Shown here one piece after another: positions 2,850 through 13,913 of a stretch of 36,963 nt of DNA. Location: the IMG/VR virus record IMGVR_UViG_2563366920_000001. The stretch is one strand, 5' to 3'. The notes under the pieces are model-generated. The model ran no database searches. It worked only from the letters and a program-made list of their open reading frames with translations, and was not told the DNA's origin. This DNA is from a virus. Taxonomy: Duplodnaviria; Heunggongvirae; Uroviricota; Caudoviricetes. Both the position numbers and the translations under genes were made by a program. Within the stretch, counting starts at the first letter, position 1; the number at the start of each line of letters is the position of its first letter.

Positions 2850-3154
2850 TATTTCACCTCTTGCTGTGACATTGTTGAGAAATGGATACCAGCTCGTTGC
2901 TGCCAGACGATCCAACCGAGAGTCATATCCCATGCCATGTATTCGTTATCGCCGTTTTTTGCTCTCCGACGATCTACTAAGTCACCAAAACGCTTTTCCA
3001 TGAATAATTCATAAGCTTCGCGTTCATCTGGTTCTACTTCCAGAGATAGGAGTGCGATTTCATAAGCACGGCGCTCAATATCGTCTCGCACGTCAAGGCT
3101 GCTGATACGCTCTTTAATTTCTTTAATCAGTTCTTTGTCGGTAAAAGTGGTCAT
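2849..3154 (-). CDS. Hypothetical early-left protein (101 aa), possibly YfdT-like
   Basis: ATG at 3154-3152, overlapping the upstream stop as TAATG. Acidic, protein-like composition. Same position and size as yfdT in K-12 CPS-53 (recollection, not verified). Confidence 0.55.
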   Translation of the reverse strand: MTTFTDKELIKEIKERISSLDVRDDIERRAYEIALLSLEVEPDEREAYELFMEKRFGDLVDRRRAKNGDNEYMAWDMTLGWIVWQQRAGIHFSTMSQQEVK

Positions 3155-3516
3155 TATGCTCCAGCCTCCGGTGCTTTTGGCATTACTGCCCAGTGAGTGA
3201 TATTGACGTTTTCAAGGTCCCCGATCTGAAATGTCCACTGCCATTCTCCGGTTTCTTTTTGTCCCCAGGTGTACCAGAGAGAACGCCAGCCAATTAGCCA
3301 GCCTTCTCCGTTAGCATCGAATAACAAAACACTTTCATTTGCTGGTGGCAGTTCAGTTGACACTGGTATTACTTTGTTTTCCTGTGCTGCACATTTAGCT
3401 TCAAGCGCATCGAATTTACGCACCAGGTATTCAGCATCCGTTTCATTCACTTTCAGATCTCGCGGTACACATCTCCCACGAAGAAACCCTTCCATTTCGA
3501 AAACATTCATGCGCAT
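3154..3516 (-). CDS. Hypothetical early-left protein (120 aa), possibly YfdS-like
   Basis: ATG at 3516-3514 with GGAG 8 nt upstream. Trp-rich C-terminal half. Translationally coupled to the downstream gene. Confidence 0.55.
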   Translation of the reverse strand: MRMNVFEMEGFLRGRCVPRDLKVNETDAEYLVRKFDALEAKCAAQENKVIPVSTELPPANESVLLFDANGEGWLIGWRSLWYTWGQKETGEWQWTFQIGDLENVNITHWAVMPKAPEAGA

Positions 3517-4043
3517 TTGCGTAACTCCGATAATTCGTTAAAGCGTTCCATAAACATCCCGTAGGCATGGCCTGGAGCCAGTGGAATCACGTTGAACATC
3601 TCTGTTGCCGGGATACCTTCCAGCACAGGCCAGAAAGAGCCATCATCAAGCCCGAGATCGCGGCGTTCGGTTGCCAGCATAATGAGATCGGCATATTTCA
3701 CTGGCGTGCTCATAACAGGAGGTAACCCGTATTTCTCACGGATTACGGCGTCTATTTTTTCTTCCATCCGTTTATAGTCAGGAAGAAGTCGTTTCAGTTG
3801 TGCGGGGATGTCCTGGCAATATGCTTCTGTTGCATCATGCATTAAAGCTTCAAAAGCAAATTCCTGCGGCACCAGCTGGCTGCAAAGCACCGCATGTTGG
3901 GCGACACTGTAGAAGTGTGAAAGATGTCCTGCAAAGCGACAGATATTTGAAAGGGAAACCGCGATATCGTTAATAACGATGTCGTCTTTATTTATCCTGT
4001 CATAATAAAAATGCTTCCCGGAAAAAGTTTTAATAAATGACAT
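3507..4043 (-). CDS. HD-domain phosphohydrolase-like protein (YfdR-like, 178 aa)
   Basis: ATG at 4043-4041 preceded by GGAGAA. Sequence MSFIKTFSGKHFYYD...NICRFAGHLSHFYSVAQHAVL...LMHDATEAY has HD-motif character and resembles YfdR of prophage CPS-53 as I recall it. Confidence 0.7.
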   Translation of the reverse strand: MSFIKTFSGKHFYYDRINKDDIVINDIAVSLSNICRFAGHLSHFYSVAQHAVLCSQLVPQEFAFEALMHDATEAYCQDIPAQLKRLLPDYKRMEEKIDAVIREKYGLPPVMSTPVKYADLIMLATERRDLGLDDGSFWPVLEGIPATEMFNVIPLAPGHAYGMFMERFNELSELRKCA

Positions 4044-4139
4044 TTTGTTCTCCACGTATATGCGCTGCACCGCGCTGAATTCGGGTAAAAGGAAGCCCTC
4101 ACCGTCCGGCGGTTATTGAGTCAATTACATTTCCATAAA

Positions 4140-4520
4140 TGCCCCCGTAGGGGCGGTTAGTTTCTCCACAAAACAGAGAAGAACACCTGCGGTGGCAGCC
4201 GCCCGGATGGATTGGGTTATGAGCCCGTCGTCCGGTGATGCTCTTCTCTGTTTTGTAAAAAGGACGGTACCAGCCGGAAGCAAGGGTACAAACTGGTACC
4301 GCCAGGACTACACACAGCATAAAGTTGTGGTGCCGGGTGCCTCCCGGTGCCTGGCGAAGGTTGCACACCAGGCGGGTGGGTATCCACAGAAGGTCGACTG
4401 TCAGCCTCAACCTTAACCCGCGTGCGCTGAGCCGCATTCACCACAACGCTAAGGATTCTCTCTGGTTGAAAATACTTAGCTGTTATGTGCCTGCTTTTAG
4501 CCACATCAGGCGAGGTGGAC
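4140..4520. other. GC-rich, highly self-complementary non-coding island (candidate structured RNA or cis element)
   Basis: No protein-like ORF on either strand; the listed ORFs here are Arg/Cys/His/Pro-rich junk. Perfect 15-bp inverted repeat 4168-4182 / 4242-4256 around a GC-rich 59-nt core, plus GGTACC-containing hairpins at 4264-4303. GC content is clearly higher than the AT-rich flanks. Confidence 0.3.
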
Positions 4521-4587
4521 CTAGTTATTCCCCAACAACAAGGATTCGGTTAATCTGGTTATCCCCAACAACGCAAAAGGAAAAGAA

Positions 4588-5022
4588 ATGTCCGGTAATA
4601 TCTATACGCTGTACAAATCCCACTGTGAAAATGTTGGAAAGTATCGGGGCATTGAAATCAGTGGGGTAGTGTCATCAGTCGAAATAAGCAAAGTTGAATC
4701 AAGGGCAACATTACTTACTCTTTTGGACCTTGTCTTACATGAGCACCGGAAGAAATTCGGCACTCCCTATAATCAGTTGAATGGGAAAAAGGCTCTGGTT
4801 CACCTTATTCTGATGAAGCATCACTGGATGCCAAAACAGATTAATGAGATGAAATTTGATGAACTTCTTCTTTCAATTCAGGATGAACTCACACTTGATA
4901 AAATAAGCGTAACCGCCCAGAAATTTTTAGATTATCGAGACTGGAGATCACAAATTCATCACTTTGATGATTTTGACGAAAATGAATGGGATCCTAATTT
5001 GTCTGCACAATATCTAAAGTAA
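4588..5022 (+). CDS. Hypothetical protein (144 aa), AT-rich accessory gene convergent with the PL operon
   Basis: ATG at 4588 with AAGGAA Shine-Dalgarno. Plausible soluble-protein composition, low GC. Its 3' end overlaps the 3' end of the opposite-strand small gene by 29 bp. Confidence 0.5.
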   Translation: MSGNIYTLYKSHCENVGKYRGIEISGVVSSVEISKVESRATLLTLLDLVLHEHRKKFGTPYNQLNGKKALVHLILMKHHWMPKQINEMKFDELLLSIQDELTLDKISVTAQKFLDYRDWRSQIHHFDDFDENEWDPNLSAQYLK

Positions 5023-5434: not shown

Positions 5435-6109
5435 TTAGGCTTTGATTTTGTATCTTCTTGGTTTTCCTGAGAAAATCACTGTACCAATTATAGAGCAATT
5501 ACCGTTGATCTTAATGTAAGGCTCAGGCCAGTTTGGGTTTAACGCTTTGAGATAACGCTGTGTCCCATCTTCTATCAACCTTTTGAAGGTGGTTTCGCCT
5601 GTATCGTGCATCAATGCAATAACGTCGTCACCGTGGCAGGCAGGTACTTCAGGATCGACAAAAATCATGTCTCCCGGGCGGTACTCATCAATCATTGAAT
5701 CACCTATCACCCGCAAGATATAAGTCATTTCCCCACAGGGTACAGGGCAGGGATACGTTTCTGCTGTGCTCAAATCAACCTCAGAATATCCAACTTCTTT
5801 CCATGCTCCGGCCTGTACCCATGATATGACAGGGACTAATGTGATTTGTTTATTAGTGATTGAAACATCAGGTTTTTTTGTGATGTTCGTTGTCTGGTGT
5901 TCTTGATCGAGCCATCCGACAGGCAGGTCGAAACATTTTTCGATGTGTCGTGCCATGCTGTCACCGATATTTTTAGTAGCACCATCTCCCATAAACCTGC
6001 TGGTCTGGGTTGGCTCGCGATCAATCATAGTGGCAAAGGAAGAATTCCCGCCAACACCATCTCTCAGTTTTCTGGCGTTAGACCGCCGGATGTCATGGAT
6101 TGTTTTCAT
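5435..6109 (-). CDS. cI: CI-type repressor (HTH plus S24 LexA-like peptidase domain, 224 aa)
   Basis: N-terminal HTH region and C-terminal autocleavage-domain character (ILRVIGDSMIDEYRPGDMIFVDPEV...GETTFKRL). ATG at 6109 sits 6 nt after the PRM -10, so the mRNA is leaderless as in lambda cI. Confidence 0.85.
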   Translation of the reverse strand: MKTIHDIRRSNARKLRDGVGGNSSFATMIDREPTQTSRFMGDGATKNIGDSMARHIEKCFDLPVGWLDQEHQTTNITKKPDVSITNKQITLVPVISWVQAGAWKEVGYSEVDLSTAETYPCPVPCGEMTYILRVIGDSMIDEYRPGDMIFVDPEVPACHGDDVIALMHDTGETTFKRLIEDGTQRYLKALNPNWPEPYIKINGNCSIIGTVIFSGKPRRYKIKA

Positions 6110-13535: not shown

Positions 13536-13913
13536 ATGCGTGATATTCAGATGGTTCTGGATCGTTGGGGGGCATGGGCGGCGAGTGATAGTTCTGGGGT
13601 AGACTATTCGCCTATAGCTGCTGGGTTTAAAGGGCTTCTTCCCTATACAAGCAAAACACGTCAGGCTTGTTCAGATAGTGATGCATTAATTATTGAAGGT
13701 TGTCTTGCTCGTCTAAAGCAAAAAAGACCTGAAGAACACTCGCTTCTTGTTGCCCATTACCTATACGGTATCTCTAAAAGAAAGCTCGCCAAGGCTCGTA
13801 AAAAGGATGAGAAACTAATACGCATTGAGATACAGATGGCTGAGGGGTTTATTGATGGCTGCCTATCGATGTTGGAAATTAGTCTAGAGATGGACCCCGA
13901 AGTTAAAGATTGA
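13536..13913 (+). CDS. Late antiterminator Q (phage 82 / QuuD-type)
   Basis: ATG at 13536 with GGAG 7 nt upstream (ORF track starts at TTG 13521). N-terminus MRDIQMVLDRWGAWAASD...IAAGFKGL matches Q proteins of 82-like lambdoid prophages as I recall them. Confidence 0.75.
   Translation: MRDIQMVLDRWGAWAASDSSGVDYSPIAAGFKGLLPYTSKTRQACSDSDALIIEGCLARLKQKRPEEHSLLVAHYLYGISKRKLAKARKKDEKLIRIEIQMAEGFIDGCLSMLEISLEMDPEVKD

Follow-up and report, generated by a model that had tools for sequence, protein, structure and literature searches.

An STnc100-type RNA domain and a tRNA-like element with the initiator-tRNA anticodon hairpin in a lambdoid prophage

The GC-rich island of the prophage

The stretch of DNA analyzed here, referred to as the window, comprises 36,963 nucleotides (nt) of a virus of the class Caudoviricetes (IMG/VR record IMGVR_UViG_2563366920_000001) and is a lambdoid prophage of the SfII/SfIV/SfV type that lies at thrW, beside a tRNA-Thr gene (1369-1444). 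On its minus strand, int, an xis-like gene, yfdT, yfdS and yfdR follow one another from the left, and beyond them lies the subject of this work, an island of non-coding DNA that contains two conserved RNA modules: an STnc100-type domain, followed by a terminator-type hairpin, and a tRNA-like element that carries the anticodon hairpin of initiator tRNA. The first gene 3′ of the RNA island in this deletion variant is yfdR (3507-4043, minus strand), a 5′-deoxynucleotidase gene according to the PGAP annotation of a 99.8% identical genome and a weak Pfam YfbR-like match. The mechanically called yfdR open reading frame (ORF) begins with GTG at 4070, and the PGAP gene of the 99.8% identical genome begins with ATG at 4043, with GGAGAA as its Shine-Dalgarno (SD) sequence; with the latter start, the non-coding island begins at about 4044.

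The island has a G+C content of 0.53-0.58 across 4100-4500, compared with 0.35-0.47 in its flanks, as had been pointed out in an earlier description that a model made from the letters and ORFs alone (the sequence-only reading). All of the features named in that description were found where it had placed them, namely a perfect 15-base-pair (bp) inverted repeat (4168-4182/4242-4256), which extends to 25 nt at 84% complementarity, a GGTACC hairpin (arms 4265-4273/4293-4301), stems within 4330-4375 (the P4 hairpin at 4334-4348 and the P3 hairpin at about 4352-4372) and a direct repeat (TTATTCCCCAACAAC at 4525-4539 and TTATCCCCAACAAC at 4559-4572). The element enclosed by the inverted repeat folds with −51.2 kcal/mol (z = −7.6; 0 of 200 shuffled sequences folded as well), and the whole 491-nt minus-strand region has a folding z of −4.8. 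The proposal that the island is non-coding and built of structured RNA is borne out, and the compensatory changes that had been suggested as a check are present in the stems in homologue alignments of both modules.

Other parts of that interpretation, which is thus only partly supported, have to be replaced. The island had been put forward as a candidate large structured RNA or cis-acting element, matched to no known family; it consists instead of two separable modules, an intrinsic terminator and a deletion junction, and one of the modules matches an Rfam family. The boundary between the modules at 4304/4305 is visible because Stx2c phages and phage mEp460 share only 4143-4304 with the window. 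The strands had been assigned the wrong way round (plus in the lysogen, minus in lytic growth), since the structures, the G-U pairs and the model scores all favor the minus strand: the covariance model R1 of the tRNA-like element gives 120 bits for the minus strand as against 45 bits for the plus strand, with a single copy in the window, and the STnc100 match occurs on the minus strand only. A homologue in Escherichia coli K1 is expressed in a lysogen from the same, yfdP-sense strand (PMC7719688). A strong promoter-like sequence close to consensus (TTGACA-16-CATAAT, 5395→5368, minus strand), situated directly after the terminator of the repressor gene, is likely to be the early-left promoter PL. 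Because this candidate reads the minus strand, the minus strand of the island would be the sense strand of the early-left operon.

The STnc100-type domain and the terminator-type hairpin

The first module (4447→4324, minus strand) is a five-way-junction domain of the STnc100/sRNA-17 superfamily, as established by an Rfam RF02076 match, by RNAalifold and by the fold of the RNA. It is closed by helix P1, GUUGUGGUG (4447-4439) pairing with CACCACAAC (4332-4324), and contains, in order, an AAU linker, the Pa hairpin GCGGCUCAGCGCACGC, arm P2 with a variable inner hairpin, the P3 hairpin and the invariant P4 hairpin CCGGGAGGCACCCGG (4348-4334). In an E-value-mode Rfam scan with an 851-nt search, STnc100 (RF02076) matched 4477→4255 of the minus strand with 43.1 bits (E = 7.1e-8), and the full model, positions 1-206, was aligned, including the closing helix, the P4 segment CACCGGGAGGCACCCGGCACCA, which is identical to the consensus, and the terminal hairpin with its U-run. 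When the whole window was scanned at the gathering threshold, tRNA-Thr was the only family found. Sub-threshold matches to MIR1094, the hairpin ribozyme, DicF and ftsZ-DE have E-values of 0.7-7 and are attributed to chance.

The domain is widespread. An STnc100-type core was also detected in SfIV, in Salmonella As1/ST64B, in phage P1 and, by blastn, in Cronobacter phiES15, where it lies upstream of kil, and a 26-nt pattern from the 5′ part of the module occurs in more than 120 viral contigs. RNAalifold applied to 15 diverse homologues returned the five-way junction with 27 pairs, five of which show compensatory changes, and a P1 consensus of GUUGYGGUG/CACCRCAAC (15 copies). In one viral contig (L128, about 13606-13750), GGCACCCGG is duplicated in tandem within the otherwise invariant P4 hairpin.

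The domain is followed by a terminator-type hairpin (4303→4257, minus strand), which corresponds to inverted repeat I5 and has an 11-13-bp stem containing GGUACC, a large loop and a terminal UUUUU (4261-4257). Its folding energy is −20.5 kcal/mol (z = −3.7). Since the hairpin and its five U residues end at 4257, a small RNA of about 190 nt, 4447→4257, is predicted. Directly 5′ of this RNA, a short hairpin is formed by GCUAAGUAUUUUC/GAGAAUCCUUAGC (4480→4448, minus strand; inverted repeat I3). Its 3′ arm resembles the 3′ strand of the tRNA-like closing stem (..UGCUCUU..-GUUGUGG) that precedes the STnc100-type domain in P1 and other phages, and it may therefore be the collapsed remnant of an upstream unit.

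STnc100 is a small RNA that prophages of Salmonella and E. coli carry in multiple copies; it has been reported to be related to PasD, and the copies of strain EDL933 are expressed, one of them being positive on a Northern blot. It has in common with the module of the window a UGGUG...CACCA closing helix, the nearly invariant CACCGGGAGGCACCCGGCACCA, a multi-branch core, a 3′ terminator hairpin with a U-run, and carriage by prophages in several copies per genome. The first hairpin is different, GCGGCUCAGCGC in the window as opposed to CCCCC..GGGGG in the STnc100 model. Classical STnc100 copies are late-region RNAs encoded downstream of Q or stx2B. The copy of the window is instead placed in the early-left leader, an unusual location for this family, and it is coupled to a tRNA-like element.

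The sRNA-17 locus

The small RNA sRNA-17 of E. coli K1 strain RS218 is a 193-nt RNA that was mapped by 5′/3′ rapid amplification of cDNA ends and Northern blotting in a lysogen of an mEp460-like prophage; it is repressed by ArcA and is reported to modulate virulence (PMC7719688). Deletion of sRNA-17 increased the reads of yfdP from 0.49 to 47 and those of yfdR from 0 to 8.5; its authors reported that it had no homologue in Rfam, and their paper does not mention the tRNA-like element (PMC7719688). For comparison with the window, the locus of mEp460 (L220, 2355-2547) was used in place of that of RS218. It starts with GUUGUGGUGAAUGCG and ends with CACCACAAC, the GGTACC hairpin and a U-tract, after which come the tRNA-like element and yfdP, and both ends given in the supplementary alignment of PMC7719688 agree with the mEp460 coordinates.

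In alignment A5, the window has the same 5′ end, GUUGUGGUGAAUGCG, and the same 3′ end, CACCACAAC followed by the GGTACC terminator, in the same position upstream of the yfdP leader; strand, fold topology and the downstream tRNA-like element are likewise shared. The interiors of about 100 nt do not align in A5; in the phage search, mEp460 matched query positions 94-255 only, that is, 4143-4304 of the window. No STnc100 match was obtained for the mEp460 domain in the Rfam scan, and the domain nevertheless folds into the topology of that of the window. The two loci also differ in that mEp460 retains yfdP and yfdQ downstream. Because ends, terminator and slot are shared, the RNA of the window can be regarded as an allele of the sRNA-17 locus in which the interior is of the STnc100 type. 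The known part of the island is thus a divergent member of the STnc100 family that links this family with the published sRNA-17. The two kinds of small RNA, STnc100/PasD and sRNA-17, which have hitherto been treated apart, appear to be built on one modular scaffold whose interiors are interchangeable, and the increase of yfdP and yfdR in the sRNA-17 deletion would be explicable in cis by loss of the terminator.

The tRNA-like element

The second module (4256→4168, minus strand) is a tRNA-shaped element, supported by covariation (alignment A2), by model R1 and by comparison with metZ. Its closing stem is the inverted repeat, 20-25 bp in length. Within this stem, arm P2 (CCGGA/UCCGG) ends in the hairpin GGG-CUCAUAA-CCC (4226-4214), which is that of an initiator-tRNA anticodon arm, and a second hairpin, P3 (GCGG..CCGC), is variable. 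The invariant core contains CGGGCUCAUAACCC, 14 consecutive nt, including the preceding C, that are identical to the anticodon stem-loop of metZ tRNA-fMet and comprise the three G-C pairs and the CUCAUAA loop of tRNA-fMet (metZ/W/V). The remainder of the element is dissimilar to tRNA-fMet and has neither a D arm nor a T loop. A decoding tRNA was rejected, as a cloverleaf with D and T arms is absent and the fold is a three-way junction.

Conservation of the core and covariation of the stems go together. Among eight phages, the core GACGGGCTCATWAYCCAATCCAYC is invariant and the stems change in a compensatory manner, and the 22-nt core was found in more than 120 viral contigs. In alignment A2, which contains 45 distinct sequences, 95.9% of the cells are paired, and 10 pairs are changed on both sides; 76 cells with changes on both sides were counted as against 23 in shuffled alignments, none of 500 shuffles reached 76, and slid controls gave 0-14. 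The members recognized by R1 have in common the closing stem, a P2 arm of the form GGG-NUCAUNN-CCC accompanied by AAUC(C/U)A, and a variable P3, with covariation in support.

Directly 3′ of the closing stem lies GGAGAAAC (4167→4160, minus strand), which is present in all 71 distinct sequences of the class to which the element belongs. In the minimum-free-energy fold, it can lengthen the closing stem by pairing with the U-tract of the terminator. It resembles GGUGAAUGC, the start of a further STnc100-type domain, and may be derived from one. Two other proposals were considered and rejected: use of GGAGAAAC as the SD sequence of a small ORF, for which no start codon is present at a suitable distance, and pairing of the CUCAUAA loop with a downstream start region, since the AUGAG that adjoins the SD sequence of yfdP in SfIV and mEp460 is not conserved in LLS or As1.

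The direct repeat at 4525-4572 reads GUUGUUGGGGA(A)UAA in both copies on the minus strand (GUUGUUGGGGAWAA), and 4436-4458 is connected with 4530-4547 and 4561-4577 through the direct-repeat families D1 and D3. The copies look like degenerate versions of GUUGUGGUGAAU, the opening motif of the STnc100-type domain; read on the plus strand, they shortly precede the SD sequence and ATG of a gene for 144 amino acids (aa). The 4480→4448 hairpin, GGAGAAAC and the direct repeats, three look-alikes of unit boundaries in the window, may all be degenerate copies.

Distribution and coupling of the two modules

The tRNA-like element occurs in two classes. Class A, to which that of the window belongs, is found in early-left leaders. 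Of its 71 distinct sequences, 69 have a T-run that directly precedes the stem, and the parts come in the order U-tract of the terminator, 20-25-bp stem, GGAGAAAC, a small hairpin and the SD sequence of the first gene. The class A element of the window has no CCA. Class B is found in Klebsiella-type phages downstream of Q, where the element, spaced like a tRNA, closes tRNA arrays as their final member (Asn-Arg-X, Met-Arg-X, Asn-Phe-Thr-Arg-X and Thr-X, where X denotes the element), has an acceptor-like stem of 6-7 bp and, in 12 of 12 cases, ends in CC(A/G)CCA.

The element is present at an identity of at least 95% in 2488 of 5426 complete E. coli genomes (about 46%), where it is unannotated, and about 15 enterobacterial genera have representatives with the exact core. 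Two further occurrences of the exact 22-nt core were noted (L228 and L232). That in an assembly labeled Chryseobacterium is probably on a contaminant contig, because it is accompanied by a full element of the enterobacterial type; that in a Promineifilaceae metagenome-assembled genome is without the flanking structure and is probably a chance match.

The two modules are coupled. Among 121 loci with the STnc100-type pattern, 92 have a tRNA-like core within 600 nt downstream, and in one contig (L217) the STnc100-type core lies between tRNA-Thr and tRNA-Ser. In the ban operon of phage P1, between tRNA-Thr and tciA, there are three tandem units, each composed of a long-stem tRNA-like element and a GUUGUGRUGAA...CAYCACAAC domain; the three domains are of the minimal, sRNA-17 and STnc100 types. 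Two of the three tRNA-like elements retain the NUCAUAU hairpin, and the third has the T-arm-like GGGUUCGAAUCCC in its place. Each tRNA-like stem has a 3′ strand that overlaps with the 5′ strand of helix P1 in the next domain, so that the outer pairs are mutually exclusive. In the P1 record (NC_005856; L007 1427-2016, equivalent to 69503-70092 of the record), these plus-strand units lie opposite the annotated minus-strand coding sequences (CDSs) plp and upl, which may be mis-annotations or may overlap functional RNAs.

In MALAT1-mascRNA and in the tRNA-miRNA units of murine gammaherpesvirus 68, tRNA-like structures serve as processing modules. The coupled modules described here, which form tandem composite units in P1, may work in a comparable way: a tRNA-shaped element without a decoding role directly adjoins a second structured non-coding RNA of the same transcript. 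The present units differ in their phage and bacterial setting, in the absence of D and T arms from the tRNA-like element, in the very long closing stem of class A and in that processing is here only predicted.

Loss of yfdP and yfdQ

The sequence-only reading had noted that the island occupies a slot that holds a protein gene in CPS-53, and the comparison with SfIV agrees with this. Positions 4000-4154 of the window correspond by blastn to 1554-1708 of SfIV (L006), and 4143-4700 to 3001-3558. The sequence to the left of about 4154 is therefore that found between yfdQ and yfdR in SfIV, and the sequence to the right of about 4143 is that upstream of yfdP; about 1.29 kb, which carried the true yfdP and yfdQ (DUF2303), is absent from the window. 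The junction (4143-4154) lies in a small G+C hairpin, GCCCCCGUAGGGGC (4140-4156, minus strand), located by blastn against SfIV and by annotation. As SfII and several viral contigs share the junction, it represents a common variant.

In homologous loci (for example L220, 2646-2668, and L013, about 2628-2650), a small G+C hairpin always stands between the tRNA-like element and the SD sequence of the first early-left gene; its sequence varies, its position is fixed and its loop contains (U/G)GCAG (CGGCGGUGGCAGCCGCC, GACCUUGCAGGGUC and GCGCCUGUGCAGAGGCGC). This hairpin could be a protein-binding or translational operator site. Owing to the deletion, the window carries another hairpin at that position.

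Function of the island and alternative explanations

On balance, the island is probably a structured non-coding leader of the early-left operon that acts as a small-RNA gene and attenuator and carries, in addition, a tRNA-like processing element. Transcripts arriving from upstream would stop at the terminator (4303→4257), as the experiments with its homologue sRNA-17 suggest. Termination would set free a stable small RNA, about 190 nt in length, and would keep yfdR-yfdS-yfdT-xis-int low in the lysogen. In transcripts that read through, the tRNA-like element may be a processing signal, with cleavage possibly by RNase P at the U|A junction (4257/4256), by RNase III in the 20-25-bp stem, or by both. 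Such cleavage would part the small RNA from the downstream mRNA and leave the same hairpin-U 3′ end, whether this is reached by termination or by read-through. The invariant CAU hairpin suggests that the element also binds a factor that recognizes the anticodon arm of tRNA-fMet. A terminator or attenuator that yields a small RNA, combined with a tRNA-like element for processing or mimicry, is thus the likely function.

Several observations weigh against this interpretation. The domain scores 43.1 bits against STnc100, which is below the gathering score of 47, and homologues score 38.4, 35.1 and 33.4 bits against the same model. The loop of the terminator is unusually large, and a simple terminator scan did not call it. 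No sigma-70-like promoter was found directly upstream of 4447 in a consensus scan; the nearest candidate (5395→5368) lies at a distance of about 900 nt, and RNA made from it would cross the 144-aa gene in antisense before reaching the island. The deletion in K1 was a cassette replacement (PMC7719688), and the rise of yfdP could hence reflect read-through from the cassette instead of loss of the terminator. As for the second module, ARAGORN called no tRNA in four modes, including the bacterial, mitochondrial and relaxed modes, RF00005 gave no match even at E ≤ 10, and no other Rfam family fits.

The most serious alternative, though rather improbable as the principal explanation, is that the element works chiefly in trans, mimicking the anticodon arm of initiator tRNA or serving as a decoy for it, and that its position in a leader is secondary. 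The decoy might be directed at an anticodon-loop nuclease against tRNA-fMet (VapC/MvpT type), at methionyl-tRNA synthetase or at the P site of the 30S subunit with IF3. Enteric VapC cleaves the anticodon loop of tRNA-fMet, and phage tRNAs are known counter-defenses. Identity of the invariant CGGGCUCAUAACCC with metZ accords with such a role, as does the pattern of variation in three divergent lineages (class A, class B and two P1 copies), in which loop positions 32, 37 and 38 vary and U33-C34-A35-U36 never does; the acceptor-like stem of 6-7 bp, the 3′ (A/G)CCA and the location in tRNA arrays of class B, together with the wide retention in E. coli genomes and across Enterobacterales, point the same way. 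However, it is the whole 22-nt core and not the anticodon alone that is conserved, and the additional conserved residues (GAC before the hairpin and AAUCCA after it) are unlike tRNA-fMet; class A is also without CCA and has a stem of 20-25 bp that resembles that of no tRNA. Literature searches on a phage initiator-tRNA mimic, a tRNA-like decoy and ST64B small RNAs returned nothing relevant, and no description of such a decoy was found. Mimicry in trans is compatible with a processing leader, and the two can coexist.

It is unlikely that the STnc100-type domain is a cis-acting processive antiterminator comparable to the put sites of phage HK022, which would replace an N protein and allow transcripts from PL to pass the terminator at 4303→4257 and later ones. 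This proposal would account for the structured domain immediately 5′ of a terminator in the early-left leader of several phage lineages and for the lack of an N-like, arginine-rich protein between the candidate PL and the island, where the products of 68 aa and 144 aa belong to no known family; HK022 likewise has a structured RNA in the early leader of a lambdoid phage seemingly without N. The genomic distribution is nevertheless different, as the domain is also found downstream of Q, inside tRNA arrays and in the 5′ untranslated region of the P1 ban operon with no terminator after it. Furthermore, the K1 homologue behaves as a terminated small RNA, accumulating as a 193-nt RNA with the downstream genes silent (PMC7719688). 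In a comparison by short motifs, those of the domain were not found in the immunity region of the HK022 stretch searched, the presumed location of the put sites, which the record leaves unannotated.

Still less probable is an action of the repeats at the level of DNA, as recombination or module-boundary sequences or as a secondary attachment site, in which the GGGCTCATAACCC palindrome would resemble the anticodon-loop core sites of tRNA-targeting integrases. Mosaic boundaries do lie at 4143 and 4304/4305, and the junction of the yfdPQ deletion falls in a small hairpin that is found on both sides of the cassette. The covariation, however, preserves pairing of the RNA, and many of the pairs kept are G-U, which the opposite strand would read as A-C; the model scores, moreover, are strongly strand-asymmetric. 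Both findings make a DNA-level site unlikely. P2 and P3, for which a recombinase core site would have no use, covary as well.

The reading of the island as a decayed protein gene, in which it would be the 5′ portion of a long YfdP (226 aa in the SfIV annotation and 112 aa in that of SfII), is essentially excluded, despite the PGAP call of a pseudogene (a frameshifted hypothetical protein) over about 4125-4444, the CDSs SfII_35 and SfIV_34 annotated over the island, open frames of 94-95 aa and the genuine deletion of yfdP and yfdQ next to it. YfdP of K-12 has 120 aa and aligns with the C-terminal part of the 226-aa SfIV_34 only, and the N-terminal extensions of YfdP in SfIV and Salmonella As1 are in differing frames and unrelated as proteins. 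A 1-nt insertion or deletion inside the most conserved stretch of the core causes identical nucleotides to be read in different frames in Escherichia (the window) and Salmonella. The helix substitutions in both modules are compensatory, and the modules occur without any yfdP in P1 and in tRNA arrays. Mechanical ORFs of 74-114 aa exist on both strands, so that the island is not literally free of ORFs; the earlier statement that none is protein-like stands, no frame being conserved among the window, SfIV, As1, mEp460 and P1. A retron non-coding RNA, type III antitoxin repeats, a T-box and a Y RNA were also rejected, as there is neither a reverse transcriptase or toxin gene nor an Rfam match; the downstream genes vary as well (yfdP, recT-like, kil and tciA).

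The new part of the island is the tRNA-like phage RNA, which is apparently undescribed, is extremely common and is absent from Rfam. It is tentatively proposed, as a possibility that falls short of being probable, that it represents a very common family of enterobacterial phage RNAs that are tRNA-shaped, present the anticodon arm of initiator tRNA and are coupled through overlapping outer helices to STnc100/sRNA-17-type domains, serving as mimics or decoys of tRNA-fMet, as processing punctuation that makes prophage small RNAs, or as both. Action against anticodon-loop nucleases or control of initiation would be examples of such a role. At present, the element is unannotated or lies under spurious calls of hypothetical proteins and pseudogenes, so that thousands of annotations, perhaps those of plp and upl of P1 among them, would be corrected by a covariance model. 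The exact initiator-tRNA anticodon hairpin, conserved in a phage RNA that is found in tRNA arrays, offers a lead into conflict between phage and host over tRNA-fMet or into tRNA-guided RNA processing in bacteria.

Neighboring genes and minor observations

To the right of the island, the 144-aa gene (4588-5022, plus strand; ECs1072 family, phrog_5286) points away from the island and would be antisense to whatever is transcribed from PL, and it is followed by a minus-strand gene of 68-73 aa (phrog_1744) that belongs to no known family. The two genes converge and overlap by about 29 nt (4994-5022). Protein-family searches with the 144-aa, 68-aa, YfdP and YfdQ products gave no known function. Farther to the right are the gene of an S24-type repressor (5435-6109, minus strand) and, beyond it, a cro-like gene; a terminator-like hairpin (5423→5404, minus strand) directly follows the repressor gene.

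In the Stx2c phage LC727876 (L003), about 2.5 kb from its tRNA-like element, isrK (5562-5638, 60.1 bits) and C4 antisense RNA (5663-5750, 80.1 bits) adjoin each other, both above their Rfam gathering scores, in a record that is otherwise unannotated.

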